DNA of 64,000 nucleotides from an uncultured Planctomycetota bacterium (GTDB lineage: Bacteria; Planctomycetota; Planctomycetia; Isosphaerales; Isosphaeraceae): contig CAWGMQ010000010.1 of the NCBI GenBank assembly GCA_963823665.1, positions 608,001-672,000 on the forward strand, given 5' to 3'. The notes below the pieces were generated by a model. It had not been told where the DNA came from and made no database searches. It saw only the letters and a program-made list of their open reading frames with translations. Each line of letters opens with the position of its first letter. Within the stretch, counting starts at the first letter, position 1. The position numbers and the translations under genes were made by a program. Positions 20,521 through 32,725 of this stretch are shown in pieces.

Positions 20521-20541
20521 GTAGGGTGGGTGAAACCCACC
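20521..20541. repeat. GTAG-type REP hairpin
   Basis: gtag-ggtgggt-gaa-acccacc. Confidence 0.6.
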
Positions 20542-20655
20542 ATCGGCCCCGTCGTCATTTTCATGCGAGCCGAATGGGCAAGTGGCTCACCAGAAGGTTC
20601 GCCCTCGCGAGGGATCGCGTTCGCGGAATCGTTCGTTGCTCTTGAGAACCATCTG

Positions 20656-23600
20656 ATGCCACTCGACCCGCAGCGTGTTCAAGCCGTGTTCCTCTCGGCC
20701 GTCGAATGCCACGAGCCGGCGGCCCGCGCCGCGCTCCTGGACCGCGAGTGCGCGACCGACCCGGAGCTGAGGCGGCGAGTCGAGGCGCTCCTGACTGCTC
20801 TCGACCAGCCCGAGAGCCTCCTCGATCAACCGATCGTCGGACTCGCCCCCGACGGCTTCGGGCCCCACACCAGCCCCGCGGACAACGGGGTCGAGGGCGC
20901 GGGGGCCGAGTCGGCCGTCGATGGCTCCAAGGCTTCCGACCCGACGGTCGGTGTGATGCCGGGCGCCGACTACACCAGGGGTGTCGGCACGCTCGTGGAG
21001 AAGTCCGCCCGCGCCGTGCCCGCCATCTCCGGCTACGAGATCCTGGGCGAGCTGGGTCGAGGCGGCATGGGCATCGTGTACCGCGCCAGGCAGGTCCGCC
21101 TGAATCGCCCCTGCGTGCTCAAGATGATCCTGGGCGGGGCCCACGCCTCGTCCGAGGCAGCCACTCGCTTCCTGGCCGAGGCGGAGGCGATCGCCCGGTT
21201 GCATCACCCCAATATCGTGCAGATTCACCATATCGGTGAGGCCGACGGCTTGCCTTTCTTCGAGCTGGAGTACGTCGACGGCGGCAGCCTTGACCGTCGA
21301 CTCGACGGCACGCCGTGGCCGGCAAAGCGTGCGGCCGCGTTGATCGAATCGATGGCGCGCGGCGTTGCCGAGGCACATCGCTTGGGCATCGTCCACCGCG
21401 ACCTTAAGCCAGGCAACATCCTGATCGCCGTCGATGGCACGCCCAAGATCACCGACTTCGGCCTGGCCAAAACTCTGGCCTCGGACAGCGGCCTGACGCG
21501 GACCGACTCGATCATGGGCTCGCCCGGCTACATGTCTCGCGAGCAGGCCGAGGGCAAGACCAAGGCGGTCGGGCCGCTCGCCGACATCTACGCCTTGGGC
21601 GCGATTCTCTATGAGCTACTGACCGGCGGCCCGCCGTTCCGGGGTACGACCGCCCTCGAGATTCTCGATCAGGTGAAGAACACCGAGCCGGTGCCGCCAT
21701 CGCGGCTCGTCCCCGGCCTGCCGCGGGACGTCGAAACGGTCGCGCTGAAATGCTTGCAGAAGGAGCCGGGCAAGCGCTACGACTCGGCCGCCGCGGTGGC
21801 CGAAGACCTGCGGCGATTCCTCGGCGGCGAGTCGATCCTGGCGCGACCTGTCGGTCCGATTGAGCGGGGATGGCGCTGGTGCCGGCGCAACCCCGTCGTG
21901 GCGGGCCTTACCGCCGCTCTGGCTGCGGTCCTGATGCTGGCCACGGCGGCCTCGCTGGCGGCCTATTGGCGCATGAGCACGCTGGCCCGCGGAGAGCACG
22001 CGGCCCGGCTGGCCGCTGTGAAGGAGATGCAGGCCGCCCAGGACGCCCGCGTGCAGGAGGCCGACCAGCGCCGGCGTGCGGAGGCCAACTTCCACAGGGC
22101 ACGCGCCGCCGTGGACGGCTATCTCACCACGGTCAGCGAGAGCCAGCTCCTCAAAGTTCCCGGGCTCCAGCCCCTCCGCGGCGAGCTATTGGAATCGGCC
22201 CTGCGGTTTTATCAGGACTTTCTCAAGGAGCGGGGCGACGACCCCATGCTCCGCGCCGAGCTGGCCGCGACCCAGCTCCGGATCGGCCGAATCCAGACGG
22301 ATCTTGGGAGCGCCAACGAAGCGCGTCGGGTCCTGAAGTCCGCGATCGCCACCTACCAGGCGGAGGTCACCAAGAACTCGCAGGACCTCGCGCTCCGCAC
22401 CGCCTTGGCCGCCGCCTGGCTGGCCCTGGGCGACCTGGCTTACAACTTCAGCGGGCAGAACTCGAGTCAGGAGCAGCTCGAAGCGTGGGAAAAGAACGCC
22501 GAGATTCGCGAGGGCCTGGCACGCGTCCGACCGGATGATCCCGGCTACCAGGCGGACCTCGCCGAAGCCTTCGAACGCCTCGGGACTGCTCGGGACGGGG
22601 CCGGCCGGGATGGGCTGCCGGCCCGCCTTCGCGGCGCCGAACTCAGCCTCGCTCTCTTCCTCAAGTCCCCGGATGACCCGAAGATCAATTTCGGCCTGGG
22701 AGAGTCGTTGAACAACATCGCCGTCGCCCTGTCGAACTGGGGGCGTCACGGGGACGCCCTGGCGATGTACCTGCGCGGCCTGGAGTATAACCGTTTCGCC
22801 TACGACAAGCTGCCGCACATGATCGAGTACGGCTGCGACCTGGGCACGGCCTACATGAATGCCGTCAGGGAGTGCAGGAAGCTGGGGCGGAGCGACGAGA
22901 CAGTCATCGAGGCACGAAAGGCGGTGGAACACTGCCGGAGCATGGTCCGGGATCACCCGGCCGTAACGATCGTGAAGCGCCATTTCGTCTGGGCCCTGGA
23001 GGCGCTCGTCCAGAGCCAGCGCGACGCAGGCTAGGCGGCCGAGGCGGCACGGACGGGCCGCGAGTTGGGGCAATGGCTCGACATCGTCGTCGATGCGCCC
23101 CAATGGATGTTCGACGGTGCCTGCTGGCACGCCCGGTTGTCCCTGTGGGCGGACGAGAGGAAGAGTTCCCTCACGAACCAGGACCAAGATGAGGCGCATC
23201 GTGAAGCCGCTCGGGCCGTCGAGCAGCTCCAGCGGGCCATCGAGTCCGGCTTCGCCGACCTCGAAGCGATTCGGAGGAACAAGGCCCTGGACCCGCTCCG
23301 GGGCCGGGCCGACTTCCAGAAGTTGGTCGCGAACCTGGAAAAGCGGCTCAGGCCGCGTTCCCAGGGAGCCCCTGCCGTGGCGGGGCCAGAGAGCGGCCCG
23401 GCGCCCAGCCCGGTCTCCGCGGCCGAGCGGGTCTGCCGGGCGCGAGCTGACCGGGCGGCGGTCCTGCATGCCGTCGGCGTGGTCAAGTGGGTCCGCAGGC
23501 ATCACGACGAGGCTCGGGACACGCTCGACGAGGCCCGCGTGCTCTGCGAGCAGCTACTCGGGGAGCGCCCGACCGACGCCCCTCTTCGGACGATCCTGGC

Positions 23601-24484
23601 CGATACTCACAGGACCCTGGGTAGCATGGATTGGGACGCACGTCGGCTCGATCACGCCGAGGCCCACCTGGACGCCGCCCTCGCGGCCGCCCCGGACGAC
23701 ATCGAGGTTCGCCTGGCCCGTGACCGCATCCTCGCCGAGTTTGGACGCGACATCGAGGCCCGCGACGACATCGCCAAGGTCCTCGCCTCGGCCCCGCTCA
23801 GCCCCGCGGCATACCGCATGGCCGCCGCCGTCCATGCCCGGCTGGGCGCCTCGGGACACGGCCGCGGAGACGCTGGCCACGCTCCTCGAACGAGATCCCG
23901 GCGACCACGGGAACTGGTGCGTCTCGGCGGCCCTCCGTGCGCGGGCTGGCGACACGGACCGCTTTCGGCGTTTGTGCCGCCGGATGCTCGATCGCTTCCG
24001 GGGAAGCCAAGACCCCGTGGTCGCGGCGCGGACGGCAAAGTACTGCCTCCTCCTCCCCATGCCCGGACCCGAGCAGGAAGACGCCGGCCGACTCGCGGAA
24101 CAGGCGGTCGCGGGTGCCACCGGGCCGCTCCGGCGCCAGGCCGGTGCGGCCGAAGGGCTGGCCGACTACCGAAGAGGGAGATTCGCCGACGCGCTCGCCG
24201 CCATCGACAAGGCCCAGGCGCTGGACGGTGACGGCGATTGGAATCTCCAGGTATTCGCCGGCTGCGTGCGATCCATGGCCTTGATGCGCCTGGGGAGCCG
24301 CGACGAGGCACGCGCGGCCCTGATGAAGGCATCGGGGCTTTACCGTTCGAACGTGCAGCAGGCTACCGCGCTCGATCCCGGAACGTTCTGGGCCGACCTG
24401 TTGATCTGTGAAGTCCTGCACCGTGAGGCCGAAGCCCTGGTCGTTTACGATCCGGCTTTCCCGGCCAACCCGTTCGCTCGATAG
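20656..24484 (+). CDS. ECF-associated-type Ser/Thr kinase with TM and TPR region (in-frame TAG 23032-23034; frameshift ~23850; possible pseudogene)
   Basis: LGRGGMG, LKMI, HRDLKPGN, DFGLAK, GSPGYM, TM after RRNP, C-terminal DPAFPANPFAR. The frame continues after the TAG. Confidence 0.85.
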
Positions 24485-25408: not shown

Positions 25409-26593
25409 ATGCCATCCGATAGCATCCGTGCGGTCCATCGGCCGGGAAAACGGCCCGCGCTGTCTGATGCCGCACTGCTCTGCTCTCTGGAAGCGATCCG
25501 TGCACGGCTGCCGGAGGGGATGACCGTCGTGACCTCGACCCAGGCTGTGGGCTGGGCAAACATCCACGGCGTGATCACGGCGGGGCGACTGGAAGACTTC
25601 TTCGACTACTGCGCACCATTTCACGTCGTCGCGTTTTGCCTCAAGGGCGCGACGACGGTCGAGTGGAAGCGCGGGACACGCTTCACGCGATTCCAGGCCC
25701 AGCCCGGGGAACTGCTCGTCACAGCGGCGGGCGAGGCCAACTCCATCCGTCAGCACCAGCCGAACGAGGCGTTCAGTTGCAGTCTCAGCCCGGACCGATT
25801 GCAGTCCCTCGCCGAGCAAGAATTGGACCCGCACGGACAGACGATCGAGATCGTGCCCGGCTTTAACCGCGACGCGGAGTTATGGAGACTGGGCGAGCGC
25901 CTGGCCGCACGGCTCCGGTCGCCCATCCCTGGTTCGCGGCTCTTCGCGGATGCTCTTCTCACTCAGATCGCGATCAAGCTCTTGTGGGACTATTCATCTC
26001 TGCCGCGCCGGAGCCATACGCCCGAGGTAGAGAAGCTCGCCGATCCCCGGCTCCGCCGGGTGATCGATTACCTCCACGGCTCATTCGGGGAAGAGATCTC
26101 GCTCGACGGACTCGCGGCGATTGCCGGCCTCAGCCCTAACTATTTCCTCCACGCCTTCAAGCAGACCACAGGGCGAACGCCTCACCGCTACCTGACCGAG
26201 CTGCGGATCGCCAAGGCCTGTGAGCTCCTCAAAAACCCTCACGCGTCGATCGTGGACATCAGCCTGGCCGTCGGCTTCTCGTCGCAGAGCCACCTGACGA
26301 CGGTCTTCGGCCGATTCATGAAGACGACCCCAGCCGCCTATCGCGAAGAAGTCCTCGGACTGCGTCACTCCCCGGATCCAGCGCCCAGGCTCGTCGAAGC
26401 CCCCGATCGGATTCGCCACGATATTCTGAGCGTGAGGCGTGCTGGAGAAAAAGCGAATCCGCCGCCTGAACTTGAATTACCTCCTGATCTTCATTCCGAT
26501 CGCGCTCGGGCTCTACTGGTCCGCGGCGAACCCGCTTCTGGTTTTCGCCACGGCGGCGATGACGATCGCGCCGCTCTCGAAAATCGTCGGTAG
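25409..26593 (+). CDS. AraC-family transcriptional regulator (3' end runs into the antiporter remnant)
   Basis: LRRVIDYL..ISLDGLAAIAGLSPNYFLHAFKQTTG..RIAKACELL..ISLAVGFSSQSHLTTVFGR...TPAAYR. Confidence 0.9.
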   Translation: MPSDSIRAVHRPGKRPALSDAALLCSLEAIRARLPEGMTVVTSTQAVGWANIHGVITAGRLEDFFDYCAPFHVVAFCLKGATTVEWKRGTRFTRFQAQPGELLVTAAGEANSIRQHQPNEAFSCSLSPDRLQSLAEQELDPHGQTIEIVPGFNRDAELWRLGERLAARLRSPIPGSRLFADALLTQIAIKLLWDYSSLPRRSHTPEVEKLADPRLRRVIDYLHGSFGEEISLDGLAAIAGLSPNYFLHAFKQTTGRTPHRYLTELRIAKACELLKNPHASIVDISLAVGFSSQSHLTTVFGRFMKTTPAAYREEVLGLRHSPDPAPRLVEAPDRIRHDILSVRRAGEKANPPPELELPPDLHSDRARALLVRGEPASGFRHGGDDDRAALENRR

Positions 26594-26640
26594 TACCACC
26601 GAGACGCTGGGCTTCTACCTCGGGCCCACGCTCGGGGGCT
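26439..26640 (+). pseudogene. N-terminal fragment of Ca2+/H+ antiporter (Cax/ChaA family)
   Basis: YLLIFIPIAL..NPLLVF..IAPLSKIVGSTTETLGFYLGPTLGG, then abrupt loss of similarity. Confidence 0.65.
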
Positions 26641-26813: not shown

Positions 26814-27134
26814 ATGGCAAAGCGCCGCGTCAGTAAAGCTCGAGTCCCAGTCAAATCCTCGACCCGCGCCGTGGATTTCGTAGCGAATGCCGCTCGAGAC
26901 GGCGCCGTCGACGCCCGTACGGCGGCGATCCGGACGTGGGACGCGACCAGCCAATTCGCCTCCAAGTGCGTCTACACCACCTGCTTCACGGCCTCTTACG
27001 GGGTGGTGTTTCCCGTGGTGCTACTGGCCCGCGTGATCCCGCGGAACAACGAAGCCGTTCGGGCCATGATCGATGGGGCGCAGGCTGCGATTCGGAAAGT
27101 CGATGACGTGGCGCCCGCCCTCTCACCGGCCTGA
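26814..27134 (+). CDS. small membrane protein, first gene of the P1B-ATPase operon
   Basis: GGAGG RBS; 106 aa with a central hydrophobic segment (CVYTTCFTASYGVVFPVVLLA). Confidence 0.75.
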   Translation: MAKRRVSKARVPVKSSTRAVDFVANAARDGAVDARTAAIRTWDATSQFASKCVYTTCFTASYGVVFPVVLLARVIPRNNEAVRAMIDGAQAAIRKVDDVAPALSPA

Positions 27135-27177
27135 GCTGTCTTCGAGAGAACTCTCCCCTTGGAAGGAGATCATCGGC

Positions 27178-28055
27178 ATGGAATCAGTCACGATCACCGA
27201 GACCCGTTCGCCCGGCGGAATCGAACCCGCGAACGGCGGCGGAGCTTTCCCCTCCCTTGACATCGAGTTTGATGAGACCGCGGGATCGCTGCGGATTTAC
27301 GACCCAAGGCTGTTCCAGGCCGGACGACGCGGCTTCTGCAAGCGGCTCCTCACGTTGGCGTCCCGTCAGCCGGGGATCATCAAGGCAGAAGTTGAGCTCG
27401 CGTCGGCTTCATGTCAGATCGAGTTCGGTCCTGGCCCGCAGACCGCTCTCTGCATGGCCGACTCGTTTGTGCGTGTGGTTCAAGAGGCTTCCTCGGGTAC
27501 CTCGCTGCTTGACAGAATCTGGTGGTGGCGCCGCCGCCGGGGATGGTCCGGCATGACGTCCTTTCATCTTCCGGAGGGAGTCTCGCTCTGGGAGACCTTC
27601 GAGGTTGACCCCGCCCGGATCCGGCTCCGCCGTTCAGGGGTCGCCGGTAACCGGGCGCGGCTCTCCCGCCTGGCAGACGCCCTTGCCAGCCTCGAGTGCG
27701 TCGAGGCGTGCCGCGTGTCTGCCTGGTCGGACCGTATCACGATCGGTGTGTGGCGGGATGGTCCCCTCTCGGACCGATTCATGGATACGGTCGAGCAAGC
27801 ACTGGCGTGTCTCGAGGCAGCCGAGCTGTTCTGGCCGGAACGTCCCGCTCTGGCCGCGCCGTTTGTCGAAGCAAGCCGGCAGGGCGCCGTCGCCAAGGCG
27901 ACCTGGGGGAGACATATCATCAACATCGCACTGGCGGGCGGCACCTTTTCAATCACGCTGATGGGTCTGGCCTTGCCGGGATTCCGTCCGTCCCGTTCTC
28001 ACCGGCGACCAGGTATCAGCTAGCGCACTGGGTTAATCGATCCCAACCCCCTTGA
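27178..28055 (+). CDS. tandem HMA-like (no CxxC) domain protein with C-terminal DUF454/YbaN-like TM segment (frameshift ~27978)
   Basis: AAGGAG RBS; two domains resembling the ATPase N-terminus (PARIRLRR); tail IALAGGTFSITLMGLALPG+IPSVPF. Confidence 0.65.
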
Positions 28056-28066
28056 GACACTCAAGA

Positions 28067-30907
28067 ATGGCCGACTTCGATCTCGCCGTCACTTTCCCGT
28101 CCGAGGGCGTGATCCGCCTTCGTAGCCGATCGTTGTTCGGCGATGCCGACAACCCGGACTATCGACGTTTCCTCGAACGGGTGTTCCAGGTCGAGGAGAT
28201 CTCCGACGTCACGATCACGGGGGGAAGTGCGCCCCAGGCGGAGTTGCGATTCTGCCCGAAGACCTCGACGTTGCGAGACGTCGCGAAGCGGATCGGCACC
28301 GTTCTGAGGCAGGGCCGGGAAAAGGGGGTCGCCACATCAAACGGCGAGGTTCACAGAAGCTCGGGCGGCCGCGCCGGGCGGAAAGGCGGCGCGCACGAGA
28401 ACGGACGTGCCCTCACGAATGGTCGTGCCCTCACGAATGGACACGCTCTGACGAATGGGTATGCGCGACAAACGGCCAGGTTCTGGCGAACGGACAAGCT
28501 CCGGCGAAAAAACGCGGGCAATCGAACGGCCAAGTCCCATTGAACGGCCGCACGAGCAACGGCGTAGCTGTCGCACCCTACTTCGAGCATCACGCCCCAC
28601 TTGAACCGGTGCGCGAAATGACGGTCGCGAGTGCGGCATCGGCCCGAGATAAGAATGGAGTTGTCAAGTATTTTCGCCACGGCTCGGTCGTGACTGGATG
28701 GGAGATCAAGCGCGATCATCCTGGCCGGCTGCGCCTCAGGAATCCGGTTCTCTACCGCAAGTCGGAGCTGTGTCAGGCCATCGAGCGGGAATTGATGGGC
28801 ATCCTCGGGATCGATCAGTACAAGACCAGCTCGCTCACGTGCTCGGTCCAGGTCGACTACGATCCGCGACAGCTCAGCAAGCTCCAGGTGATCGAGATCC
28901 TCGACTCGGTCCTCGCCAGCGCCGAGCACCCAACCGCTCCCGACAAGTCAGACCTTCACCTGCCAGTCTGCACGGCCTCGCTGCCAATCGCGGCGGCGGC
29001 CCAGTTCGCCTTCCCTCCGCTCCTGCCGGTGGCGGCAGCGGTGTTTGCGTACACGTCGATCCCAACGTTCAAGGAGGCTTACAAAGTCTTGTTCAAGGAG
29101 AAGCGGCTGGGGGTGGACGTCCTCGACTCGATCGTGGTCGTTGGCTGCCTGGGGACCATGGCGATCTTCCCCGGAGCCGTGCTCTGCTGGTGCCTCGGCT
29201 TCGGTCGTGCACTGGTCAAGAAGACGCAGGATAACTCCAAGAAGCTGCTGCTGAACGCCTTCGGCAAGCAGCCGCGATACGTGTGGCTCTATCGGGACGG
29301 CGTCGAGGTGCAGGTGACGATGGACCGGCTCCAGAAGGGCGACATCATCGTCGTCAGCACCGGCGAGGTGGTGCCGGTCGACGGGCACGTGGTCGAGGGA
29401 ATGGCGATGATCGACCAGCACGCGCTGACCGGCGAGTCGACACCGGCCGAGAAGGGCATCGGCGACCGGGTCTTTGCCTCGACCGTGATGGTGGCCGGCA
29501 AGGTCTTCGTCTCGGTCGAGACGTCGGGCAGCGACACGGCCTCGGCCAAGATCAGCCAGATCCTCAACGACACGGCCGGTTACAAGCTCGCCTCGCAGCA
29601 CAAGGGCGAGCGGCTGGCTGACAAGGCAGTGATCCCGACCTTGACCATCGGCGCCCTTGGGATGGCCACGATGGGCCCCGCCGGCGCGGTCGCGGTGCTT
29701 GAACAGCGACTTCGGCACCGGAATCCGCATGGCCGCGCCGCTGGCCATGCTCAGCTCGCTGGCCTTGTGTGCGAACAAAGGCATCCTGGTCAAGGACGGA
29801 CGGGCACTGGAGCTGATGAACGAGGTCGACACAGTCCTCTTCGACAAGACCGGCACCTTGACCCGCGAGCGGCCCGAGGTCGGTCGGGTCATCGCCGCCC
29901 GCGGGTTCGAAGCGGACCAGATCCTTGGCTTCGCGGCGGCCGCCGAGCGGAAGTTCCATCATCCGATCGCGCAGGCGATCCTCCACAAGGCCGAAGAGCT
30001 CAATCTGGTCCCGCCGCCGACCGACGAGACCCAGTACAAGGTCGGCTATGGCATCACGGTCCACGCCCTGGGGCACACCATCCGCGTGGGCAGCAGGCGG
30101 TTCATGGAGATGGAGGGGATCGAGCTGCCGCCCGAGGTGAGGGCGGCCTTGGAGGAGGCGCACGGCGAGGGTTACACGATGGTCATGGTCGGCGTGGACG
30201 GCCGCCTGGGCGGGGCGATCGAGCTGCGAGCGTCGGTCCGCCCGGAGGTTCGGGAGATCATCGACGGGCTGCGCAAGCGCGGGATCAAGCACATCGCGAT
30301 CATCTCGGGCGACCACGAGGCCCCGACCAGGAAGCTGGCGGAATCTCTGGGAATGGACCGCTACTTCGCCCAGGTCCTGCCCGCGGACAAGGCCGAGTAC
30401 GTCGAGAAACTCCAGAACGAAGGGTGCAAGGTCTGCTTCGTGGGCGACGGTATCAATGATTCGATTGCGCTCAAGAAGGCCAACGTGTCGATCTCGCTCC
30501 GGGGCGCCTCGACGATCGCAACCGACACGGCCCAGATTGTCTTCCTGGAAGAAGGGCTCGCCAAGCTGTGCGAGCTGCGCGACATCGCCCGCGACCTCGA
30601 TCACAACGTGAAACGGAGCTGGTCGATGATCCTGGCTCCCAACATCGCCTGCATCGCGGGCGTCTTCACATTGGGGTTCGGGATCATGGCGTCGGTCGTC
30701 ACCAACAACGTCGCCGCCCTGGCCGCGCTCGCCAACGGCATGCTCCCGCTCCGCAAGGTCGCCCAGATCGAGGCCGAGCGCCGGCACAGGCTGGAGATGA
30801 GCCAGGAAACTTATGGTATTGAGAGAAACGCTGTACCGGCGCCGCCTGCTGCGGCCGCTCGACGAGGCAACAAGAACCGCCGTCCACGGCGAGTTCGCGC
30901 GTCGTAG
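28067..30907 (+). CDS. heavy-metal P1B-type ATPase, non-CPC (FezB/P1B-6-like; frameshifts ~28466, ~29695)
   Basis: TGES, DKTGTLT, HHPIA, GDGIND. TM motif NSDFGTGIRMAAP in place of CPC, late TNNVAA, N-terminal PGRLRLR domain. Confidence 0.9.
28397..28562 (+). repeat. 18-bp tandem repeat / Asn-Gly hexapeptide linker within the ATPase
   Basis: gagaacggacgtgccctc, acgaatggtcgtgccctc, acgaatggacacgctctg, acgaatgggtatgcg; continues TNGQVL ANGQAP SNGQVP LNGRTS NG. Confidence 0.8.
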
Positions 30908-30993
30908 ACATCAAATCCCGGTCGCCACCGAATTTCAATGGCACCATGAGAAACCGCAGTTCACGATCCGCTCGAAAAAGGATTCCAGCGCTG

Positions 30994-31513
30994 ATGCCAG
31001 CCAAAAAAGCGAGGGTTGCCGGTCCCGCTCCGCCGATCGATCTGGACCTGAAGTCTGAGCCCCCGCCTCGGCCTGTGAACGATCAGGTGAAGCGGTTCGA
31101 CATCTTCCTGATCGATACGGGCTGGAATACGGCCATCTCGAAGCTGGTGCGCTCCCACTTGCCGCTATTATACCAATTTCAACAGCAAGAGAGCCTCTAC
31201 CTGCTTACACCCGAGCAGTCGGTCGAGATCCTGAAGCGCGCCCGAGTTCATCGGTCGCGACCCGACCGTCCTCGTGTACGATCTCTGCGCTCCGGTCGGC
31301 CGCAAGCATCGCAACTATCACGGCTTTCACCTGAGTCTCGGCCGATTCAAGCACCCGGAACAGGCGCTGTCGCGGCTGCAGGAGTTCCTCCGTTTTCTGA
31401 TCTCGAACCGGTCCTCCGCCGCTCTGGATACCGAGGTTCGCCGCGAACTGAATCGCGAGGGAGCCAAAGGCATGATCAAGATCCTCCGCGAGGCGACCAC
31501 CGAATTGCTCTGA
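30994..31513 (+). CDS. hypothetical soluble protein in the ATPase operon (frameshift ~31240)
   Basis: RFDIFLIDTGWN..LYLLTPEQS joined to DPTVLVYDL..GFHLSLG..LQEFLRFL..GMIKIL. Confidence 0.7.
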
Positions 31514-31549
31514 CGACCCAACGCACGAGTCTTGCTTGAGGAGAAGCCG

Positions 31550-31753
31550 ATGAACGAAGAAATCTCCATTTTGCCGATTTTGGTCGGCGCGCTGGCTGTG
31601 CTCTACTTCGGTTATGAGATCGAGCGCCGCCGTCACCAACTGCGCGAAACGTTCAATGTCTTCGACAAACGGGAAAGCACGATCGCTCAGGGGCTGGAGC
31701 TCATGGTTGAAAGCGGCGAGCTCAGGCCGTATGTCCCAGGCCAGGTGAGCTGA
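31550..31753 (+). CDS. small single-TM protein, last gene of the ATPase operon
   Basis: GAGGAG RBS; ILPILVGALAVLYFGY TM followed by a charged helix. Confidence 0.7.
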   Translation: MNEEISILPILVGALAVLYFGYEIERRRHQLRETFNVFDKRESTIAQGLELMVESGELRPYVPGQVS

Positions 31754-31785
31754 GCACGGTCCGTGCCGACGGAGCTGTCCGCCAG

Positions 31786-31918
31786 TTCGCAGGCTTGGGT
31801 CACGAGGAGATCGCGGCGTCCCTCGGCATCACAGTCTACCTCGCTCGCCAGAAGTGGACTTACGCCCGTGCCTGGCTCGGCGATGTCTTGGGCGCCTGAT
31901 CCGTTCTTCGGGTAAGAT
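31786..31918 (+). pseudogene. ECF sigma factor region-4 remnant (TIGR02999-like); includes copy B of the 72-bp repeat
   Basis: FAGLGHEEIAASLGITVYLARQKWTYARAWLGDVLGA* (31786-31899), no upstream sigma region 2. Confidence 0.8.
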
Positions 31919-31974: not shown

Positions 31975-32725
31975 AAAAGTGTCAGGAACCGTTTCCCAGT
32001 TTTTTGGGCCGCCCGCGCGGACGGATCGTTGATTCCAGACCCAGTTGCCGCACGGTATGGTCCGTCCACGTCTCGTCGCCAAACGGACTGCATCGCTGCA
32101 TGCTCACGCGTACTGCCTTGAGCTCGGCTTCCGTCTGAGCCGCATTCACATGTTCAACCCAGTTCGACTTGCGCGACAATGGCCACGCGGCGAGCAGCTC
32201 CTTGTCTTCGGCCGAGCCGCGCAGCCAGCGATAGAGGCTGCTCCAGCGCCACTGCTCGGCACGACGCGCGAGGTTCGCACGCACCGCATTCCGCTCCACA
32301 TAGCGTGCGACCATGTAAAAATGCTCGTCCTCCTGAATCGGAAACGACTTGAACCGCCCCTGGTACACGTGCCCCGAACCCGTCGTACCGCGATGCGCGT
32401 GCCAGCGCTGGGTGTGCGTGAGCGTTAGCCAACCGGCGAACTGAGATAACTCCCCATCCTCCTTCGGCCAGACCACGAGGTGCCAGTGGTTCGGCATCAA
32501 GCAATAAGCCAGCAACCGCATGCCCGTCCGCGCAACAGCTTCCCGCAACACCTCCTCGAATGCCTCGTAGTCCCCGCTATCCTCAAAAATCGTCATCCGC
32601 GCATTCGCGCGGTTGAGCACATGATAGACATATCCCCCCTCGGCGGCTCGATGTGGTCTTCCCATGCCGGCCTAGAATACCCGTACCATGCTAAGATGTC
32701 AATTAACGGTTCCTGACACCTTTTT
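31975..32725 (-). mobile_element. RAYT/Y1 (HUH) transposase element with terminal inverted repeats; CDS 31982-32665
   Basis: YHVLNR, YCLMPNHWH (HUH), QGRFKS, RYVERN, WRWSS. Perfect 15-bp IR gtgtcaggaaccgtt (31979-31993) / aacggttcctgacac (32705-32719). Confidence 0.9.

Follow-up and report, generated by a model that had tools for sequence, protein, structure and literature searches.

Pumps of the P1B-6 type, to which the ferrosome pump FezB belongs, carry the signatures D[YF]SCA in the fourth transmembrane helix (TM4) and HNxxT in TM6, and the arginine-rich motif found in FezB is not specific to it (Grant and Komeili, bioRxiv 10.1101/2020.01.10.902569). In mycobacteria, the protein PacL serves as a plasma-membrane scaffold for pumps (PMC13460109). 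A third system involves the protein calcyanin, encoded by ccyA. Around Microcystis calcyanin, one report lists DUF5132, a fusion of HMA_2 with DUF454, a further HMA_2 protein, DUF5132, ccyA and cax (Ca2+/H+ exchanger), and describes cax, DUF5132 and the DUF454 gene as co-expressed with calcyanin (Bruley et al., bioRxiv 10.1101/2024.07.07.602159); another notes a Fischerella plasmid on which cax, a carbonic anhydrase and two cation ATPases lie close to ccyA (Benzerara et al., PMC8890360). How Ca2+ enters inclusions of intracellular amorphous calcium carbonate (iACC) has been stated to be open, as Cax is thought to export. Here we describe a gene cluster around a P1B-type ATPase (the ‘pump’) at positions 26,814 to 31,753 of a 64,000-nucleotide stretch (the ‘window’) of contig CAWGMQ010000010.1, from an uncultured Planctomycetota bacterium of the family Isosphaeraceae.

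The cluster is widespread in bacteria and unstudied, and the window holds a trimmed copy of it, in which the pump is accompanied by the genes g1, g2, g4 and g5. Judging from sequence, we give a probability of about one half to the explanation that it is a P1B module of Ca2+ type which resembles a ferrosome in its construction but is not a member of the fez family, with both the ion and the compartment being predictions. The original prediction was that of a divergent fez-type system or a related metal-compartment system that has accessory genes of its own. A related metal system agrees with our results, given that FezB-type pumps form the sister group of the pump and that the accessory genes accompany it elsewhere, whereas a divergent fez-type system does not, because both P1B-6 signatures fail, the profiles of g1, g4, g5 and a 103-aa protein family matched none of the fez-type accessory proteins tested, and no iron-homeostasis gene was found beside the cluster.

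Ion site and phylogeny of the pump

P1B ATPases are known as transition-metal pumps. The window pump has the general features of these enzymes (TGE, DKTGT, HP, GDGxND and the P1B fold), and the motifs originally reported for it were all recovered: TGES, DKTGT, HP and GDGIND are present, DFGTGIR lies at the CPC position, the NN of the last TM pair belongs to a TNN in TM6, and the N-terminal domains carry the FezB-like arginine-rich motif (PGRLRLR) without CxxC. The ion-site residues are NSDFGTGIR in TM4, PN in TM5 and TNN (TNNVAA) in TM6. Among close homologues, NSDFGTGIR was conserved in 119/120, PN in 120/120 and xNN in 120/120. Neither P1B-6 signature is present, as DFGTG stands in place of D[YF]SCA and TNNVAA in place of HNxxT. 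In the alignment to FezB, cysteine is replaced by threonine (D-x-S-C-A to D-x-G-T-G) and histidine by asparagine (H-N to N-N), so that only oxygen-donor residues remain in TM4 to TM6. From general coordination chemistry, we infer that such a site would favor Ca2+, Mn2+ or Mg2+.

Phylogenetic analysis was performed with trees that contained no P1B-5 (PCP) reference and in which FezB was represented by six proteins chosen by signature and gene context, rather than by the three experimentally studied ones. With IQ-TREE (38 sequences), the pump fell within a superclade of DxGTG pumps (ultrafast bootstrap 100) that was sister to the FezB-type pumps (99; joint node 95). Pumps with CPC, SPC or CSC fell outside this joint group, so that the pump stands apart from ordinary Cu/Zn/Co exporters. 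FastTree runs with 79 and 40 sequences gave the same grouping of DxGTG and FezB pumps, and in the trees the window pump is sister to the FezB clade, not nested in it. Its core is 23-29% identical to canonical P1B exporters, and the best Foldseek match was ATP7B (E 2e-41), followed by CopA and ZntA entries. These results point to the DxGTG pump as the closest relative found of FezB.

A large branch adjoining the pump subclade consists of active-looking pumps without a conserved TM4 ligand. Among the 150 nearest 50%-cluster representatives, 118 lacked a conserved TM4 motif and 22 carried DxG[TS]G; a further 10 were not long enough to be scored. The linker between the N-terminal domains of the window pump (28400-28460) contains short tandem NGxALT/NGHA repeats, the length of which varies among relatives.

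Neighboring genes in related loci and a possible link to calcyanin

We fetched 75 loci, of which 65 have a close pump and 37 are well flanked (>= 5 kb, that is, at least 5 kb on both sides), and counted genes by seeded tblastn. The nearest relatives of the window locus are from Planctomycetota, mostly Isosphaeraceae/Isosphaerales, which bears out the originally suggested planctomycete origin; other hosts include Rhodopila-type alphaproteobacteria and Methylococcaceae, and the accessory genes travel with the pump across three bacterial classes. In the 37 well-flanked loci, we found g1 in 33, small DUF454/PGPGW-like membrane proteins in 32, g4 and g5 in 30 each, a second pump in 29, a gene for a conserved 103-aa protein in 26, cax in 16, a single-helix protein with GxxxG in 14, g2 in 9, AraC in 7, DUF1345 in 6 and Nramp-family genes in 2. 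Among the 65 close loci, cax was present in 24 (17 planctomycete, 3 alphaproteobacterial and 4 gammaproteobacterial), either up- or downstream and on either strand. Carbonic anhydrase was rejected as a regular neighbor, since one beta-carbonic anhydrase probe matched 1/65 loci and 0/37 well-flanked ones. On another contig of the window’s genome (L099:9290-12200), a g1 paralog, a small DUF454-like gene, a secreted protein of a cluster-associated family and a beta-carbonic anhydrase occur together.

The second pump of the relatives is catalytically dead: DKTG and GDGxND were each found in 0/32 long open reading frames (ORFs) and a TGE string in 5/32, although the TM4 Asp and the TM5/TM6 Asn residues are mostly kept. 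In the tree, these dead paralogs form their own clade adjoining the active DxGTG pumps. The dead copies of cyanobacterial islands group with cyanobacterial pumps, which suggests, with modest support, a second origin in cyanobacteria. In the window’s genome, the GxxxG gene and a dead pump lie together on another contig (L084:9906-12547), apart from the active pump; genes for a DUF697-GTPase and EcsC adjoin this pair, and EcsC or DUF697 was also seen in L012, L024 and L074. Two full cax genes occur on two further contigs of the genome, and more g1 copies elsewhere. The GxxxG gene, the dead paralog and the two full cax genes could supply their functions in trans.

We also compared the accessory genes with fez-type loci. 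Profiles of g1, g4, g5 and the 103-aa family gave no match to the accessory proteins of the fez-type loci tested. The profile of the GxxxG family, which lies outside the window operon, gave one weak match in a fez-type Vibrio locus (E 5e-4). Probes for FeoA, DUF2202, YtxH-type and other proteins from fez-type loci had no counterpart in the related loci L009-L077 apart from the HMA domains of the pump itself. When 134 of the 272 neighbor ORFs left unassigned (those nearest the pump, after removal of 14 opposite-strand shadows) were scanned with Pfam, no FeoA, FeoB transporter, Fur or ferritin was found. FezC/FezD-like probes matched the pump N-terminus through its HMA domains (E down to 4e-8). 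DUF1490 was matched neither by the window genes nor by the GxxxG family; there was one marginal opposite-strand match (E 0.044).

The accessory proteins themselves show few links to named families. Hydropathy analysis gave one hydrophobic stretch without GxxxG in each of g1 and g5, and the alignment of g1 showed an S-x3-Y-x3-Y-x4-G-V core in this stretch. Atlas searches with g1 and g4 returned unnamed clusters, save DUF4317 on 12% of one cluster, and the NCBIfam scan of the accessory proteins gave no informative family. The originally proposed structure of g2, tandem HMA-like domains with a DUF454 tail, holds for its relatives, such as the 53% identical L014:4464-5603, in which PF04304 (DUF454) is complete (E 7e-19); in the window the tail is frameshifted at ~27969 and truncated, and the Pfam scan of the g2 pieces found no match. 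In the 103-aa family, 2/7 members matched PF09650 (PHA_gran_rgn) at E 0.05-0.08, which we take as a lead only. The g4 model (mean predicted local distance difference test score 84.5) gave a best structural Z of 6.8 (root-mean-square deviation 2.6 over 88 aligned residues), a weak match, with the listed rows being mostly of thioredoxin fold; Foldseek gave no match at E 0.001 or better. From this model, g4 is probably, albeit weakly, a thioredoxin-like fold without CxxC that would act as a Cys-free adaptor.

Next, we consider the link to calcyanin, for which CoBaHMA was taken as equal to PF19991, following bioRxiv 10.1101/2024.07.07.602159. The window has a CoBaHMA+DUF454 gene (the architecture of g2) and cax (as a remnant) beside the pump, both of them eroded. 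A plasmid island of Nostoc flagelliforme (L132:8632-39595) holds two DxGTG-clade pumps, a dead pump, two annotated cax genes, a P2-type ATPase, ArsA, DUF454, DUF5132, two DUF1345, a Mn-efflux gene and an HMA_2+glycine-zipper protein. In an Isosphaeraceae metagenome-assembled genome, a protein of 285 aa starts at the pump end (L017:1687-2541), in an island of a pump remnant, AraC, g1, a TerC-like gene, g2 and cax; it contains three glycine zippers, of which two have a central Gly-Pro. This protein has 28 homologues, and a metagenome scan with its family yielded 23 loci; 10 of them have DUF5132 nearby, of which 8 also have HMA_2 and 7 also cax. At one locus (L158), the genes follow the published order and the protein, at 349 aa, has the length listed for the calcyanin of PCC 7806; the L017 protein is 47% identical to it (103/221). 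This suggests, from gene order, length and pattern rather than from comparison with the published sequence, that the L017-type protein is a calcyanin homologue. The pump 3' end lies directly upstream of such a homologue in 4/16 loci tested, namely L017, L143 and L146/L147 (planctomycete-type), although L146 and L147 are the same sequence and the pump is only a remnant in L017 and L146/L147. Two more calcyanin-like proteins (L150:5746-6798 and L162:4971-6275) were seen on contigs without cyanobacterial gene context. A calcyanin-like protein in an Isosphaeraceae genome raises the possibility of intracellular CaCO3 in some planctomycetes, and we found no paper joining calcyanin with Planctomycetota.

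Methylococcaceae have been reported to form iACC (bioRxiv 10.64898/2025.12.07.689555). Calcyanin was found in none of five small Methylococcaceae-type assemblies holding the pump (two rechecked by profile), and this report could not be tied to the pump cluster. We also searched with an improvised DNA-level pattern for glycine zippers, which had no match in any of 5 genomes and only chance-level matches in the window’s genome (4, compared with 2 for the control); such a pattern is not a valid calcyanin test.

Layout and condition of the window copy

The five co-directional genes of the original prediction exist as described, but its count missed a sixth gene and the 5' remnant of cax (Table 1). 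The AraC gene and the cax remnant sit just upstream of g1, and this AraC protein may be the regulator of the pump cluster. Over 65 aa, the cax remnant shares 71% identity with a full-length cax that the genome carries on a different contig. Promoter and terminator scans gave results at chance level, and no RNA data set containing the stretch was listed. Beyond g5, a 122-nt stretch at ~31780-31900 has further copies elsewhere in the window’s genome and in related genomes.

Table 1. Features of the pump cluster and its flanks in the window
Feature	Position	Strand	Description
AraC-family regulator gene	25409..26593	+	HTH_18 + AraC_binding; open frame continues across cax remnant
cax (Ca2+/H+ exchanger) 5' remnant	26439..26640	+	~67 codons; TIGR00846, E 1.5e-6
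g1, 106-aa protein	26814..27134	+	Ala-rich helix, then hydrophobic stretch; no Pfam family
g2	27178..~28055	+	Two Cys-free HMA-like domains and start of DUF454 (YbaN-like) membrane tail
P1B-type ATPase, DxGTG clade	28067..30907	+	PF00122, PF00702, PF19991 (HMA_2); two Cys-free N-terminal HMA-like domains
Sixth gene, N-terminal half of conserved 103-aa protein	30813..30980	+	Overlaps pump stop; E 7e-9
g4, soluble protein, ~175 aa	30994..31513	+	Frameshift ~31241 in C run
g5, 67-aa protein	31550..31753	+	One N-terminal TM helix and basic juxtamembrane stretch
IS200-like (Y1_Tnp) transposase	31982-32665	-	Directly 3' of g5

Single-base indels interrupt g2 (~27969), the pump (~28466 and ~29697) and g4 (~31241). 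Two environmental contigs lack the pump indels and otherwise match the window (0 differences over 159 nt and 1 difference over 216 nt), at a low depth of 2.4 and 2.9 that makes the evidence weak. Because these near-identical contigs lack them, both pump frameshifts are probably assembly errors. In the same assembly, the mfd gene is spread over three frames. A Ser/Thr kinase-TPR gene at 20530-24484 of the window is likewise broken over several frames, which is consistent with a high indel error rate of the assembly. Pairwise ratios of nonsynonymous to synonymous substitution rates (dN/dS) were 0.03-0.19 for the pump core, 0.13-0.17 for g5, 0.14-0.68 for g4, 0.32-0.33 for g2 and 0.67 for g1 (one comparison). 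This indicates that the pump core is under purifying selection, which, as the values are pairwise, is not a lineage-specific statement.

Other parts are missing. In comparison with the related locus L069, the window lacks ~790 bases, corresponding to the DUF454 tail of g2 and a second g1 copy, and the surviving piece of the g2 tail carries non-conservative changes. The sixth gene covers only residues 1-56 of the 103-aa family. These blocks are probably real losses, because the related loci L009 and L069 are also without an intact 103-aa gene; under a 31-letter rule, no contig bridged a junction. We regard the window copy as a reduced version of the conserved cluster, in which cax, the g2 tail and the sixth gene are remnants.

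Competing explanations and comparison with known systems

If the cluster is a Ca2+-type module, the pump would spend ATP on clearing the cytosol of a hard divalent cation, most likely Ca2+, and would act alongside cax. The cation would either leave through the cell membrane or enter a membrane patch or vesicle that the dead paralog and the small proteins organize. The small proteins and the dead copy may scaffold a membrane domain, as FezA-type or PacL-type proteins do for their pumps (PMC13460109). A more far-reaching form of this explanation, which we hold only tentatively and consider rather unlikely, is that DxGTG pumps, together with their dead partner, do for calcium what the ferrosome machinery does for iron, loading Ca2+ into membrane-bound compartments and, where calcyanin is present, feeding iACC.

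Several observations weigh against the Ca2+-type module. The ion assignment is read only from pump motifs and neighbor genes, and erosion of the window copy is plain to see. The neighborhood counts are not independent, since some genomes and genera contribute more than one locus; they are also without a formal background control, and cax is absent from 21/37 well-flanked loci. Nramp-family genes at 5/65 loci, PHO4 at 3/65 and the Mn-efflux gene of the Nostoc island leave room for Mn2+, Mg2+ or Fe2+, and the 118/150 representatives without the TM4 motif indicate that the pump lineage can lose its ion site. No calcyanin was found in the window’s genome, which is 91.9% complete, either with a single-protein query or with a 21-row profile with positive control, all queries being homologues found here rather than published calcyanin sequences. 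A calcyanin homologue occurs in only 3/121 genomes of the family, compared with 69/121 for the pump, and no pump was found in the fetched flanks of 10/10 Microcystis-type calcyanin loci.

Alternatively, the ion of this module might be Mn2+, Mg2+ or more than one hard cation, exported by a platform in the cell membrane that resembles an effluxosome and has no internal compartment. Asp, Asn, Ser and Thr ligands suit Mn2+ and Mg2+ too, and the Nramp-family and Mn-efflux genes noted above fit such a platform. The GxxxG protein is also like PacL and DUF1490 in layout, and PacL acts as a plasma-membrane scaffold (PMC13460109). Against this, cax (24/65) exceeds Nramp (5/65), and genes of the calcyanin neighborhood recur; we consider this platform unlikely. 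A divergent true ferrosome, in which the pump loads Fe2+ into lipid-bound granules, seems to us improbable. The position of the pump as sister to FezB-type pumps, the shared arginine-rich Cys-free HMA domains (FezC/FezD-like probes, E to 4e-8) and the weak GxxxG match in the Vibrio locus (E 5e-4) speak for it. Fe2+ is also able to use O-donor sites. However, D[YF]SCA and HNxxT are both absent, the iron-related genes sought in L009-L077 and in the 134/272 ORFs were not found, and none of the fez accessory proteins tested is related to g1, g4, g5 or the 103-aa family.

A non-metal substrate, such as an organic molecule or lipid, with the small proteins and dead paralog shaping membranes, is if anything slightly less probable than a ferrosome. 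Such a role would suit the lack of a Cys, His or Met ligand in TM4-6 and the variable TM4 of the adjoining branch (118/150), but the polar set N-S-D, N and N-N is near-invariant in the subclade and partly kept in the dead paralog, and the recurring neighbors are cation transporters. We give the least weight to the window copy being a decaying, non-working relic, whatever the family does. The survival of no more than fragments of cax, the g2 tail and the 103-aa gene, the four frameshifts, the separation of the dead paralog and GxxxG gene from the pump and the g1 dN/dS of 0.67 would all be expected of a relic, whereas the contigs without the pump indels (depth 2.4 and 2.9, weak), the split mfd in the same assembly and the low pairwise dN/dS of the pump core (0.03-0.19) and g5 (0.13-0.17) argue for a working gene set.

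If the Ca2+-type module is correct, a clade with oxygen donors in place of Cys/His, beside calcium genes, would be a new P1B specificity class, and the ferrosome design would have been reused for another ion. The clade is widely spread, in 69/121 genomes of the window’s family and also in alpha- and gammaproteobacteria and cyanobacteria. It offers a testable candidate for Ca2+ transport into iACC in the cultured Aquisphaera insulae and Tautonia sociabilis; if the more far-reaching form of the explanation were true, iACC biomineralization would extend to Planctomycetota, and the missing inward Ca2+ transporter would be supplied. Among the matches listed in our literature search, there was no paper on a catalytically dead P1B partner and no P-type ATPase paper on the DxGTG motif, and the papers listed for FezH were unrelated; the CoBaHMA paper may already list these pumps, and FezH or a related arginine-rich group may turn out to be this clade. 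A conserved dead P-type partner and planctomycete calcyanin homologues were thus not found in print among the matches searched.

The closest known systems differ in how much they share with this cluster. Like the window cluster, fez clusters combine a pump of the sister clade, arginine-rich Cys-free N-terminal domains and an operon in which small membrane proteins occur with HMA-like ones; among the relatives, 14/37 have a GxxxG protein, whose profile matched a fez-type locus only weakly, and larger fez clusters carry a second P1B, FezH. They differ in the pump ion site (DxGTG/NN in the window, D[YF]SCA/HNxxT in FezB), in the unmatched g1, g4, g5 and 103-aa proteins, in the second pump, which in the relatives of the window cluster has lost its catalytic motifs, and in the neighbors, with cax and DUF1345 here taking the place of Feo, Fur or ferritin-like genes. 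Canonical P1B-1/-2/-4/-7 pumps (CopA, ZntA/CadA, SPC and CSC) share the fold and catalytic motifs, whereas the window pump is without xPC and CxxC and forms a separate clade. The PacL-CtpC/G/V effluxosomes also pair a pump with a Cys-free N-terminus and a small single-TM Ala/Glu-rich protein (PMC13460109). However, the CtpC-type pump keeps CPC and HN and falls outside the FezB+DxGTG group, no dead paralog is described in that text, and the PacL-like gene is not part of the window operon. The calcyanin (ccyA) neighborhood differs in that no calcyanin was found in the window’s genome and that g1, g4 and g5 were not seen there. It nevertheless shares with our cluster the HMA_2/CoBaHMA+DUF454 fusion (g2), single-TM amphipathic proteins of DUF5132 type and cax, and in three related loci a putative calcyanin homologue follows the pump 3' end.

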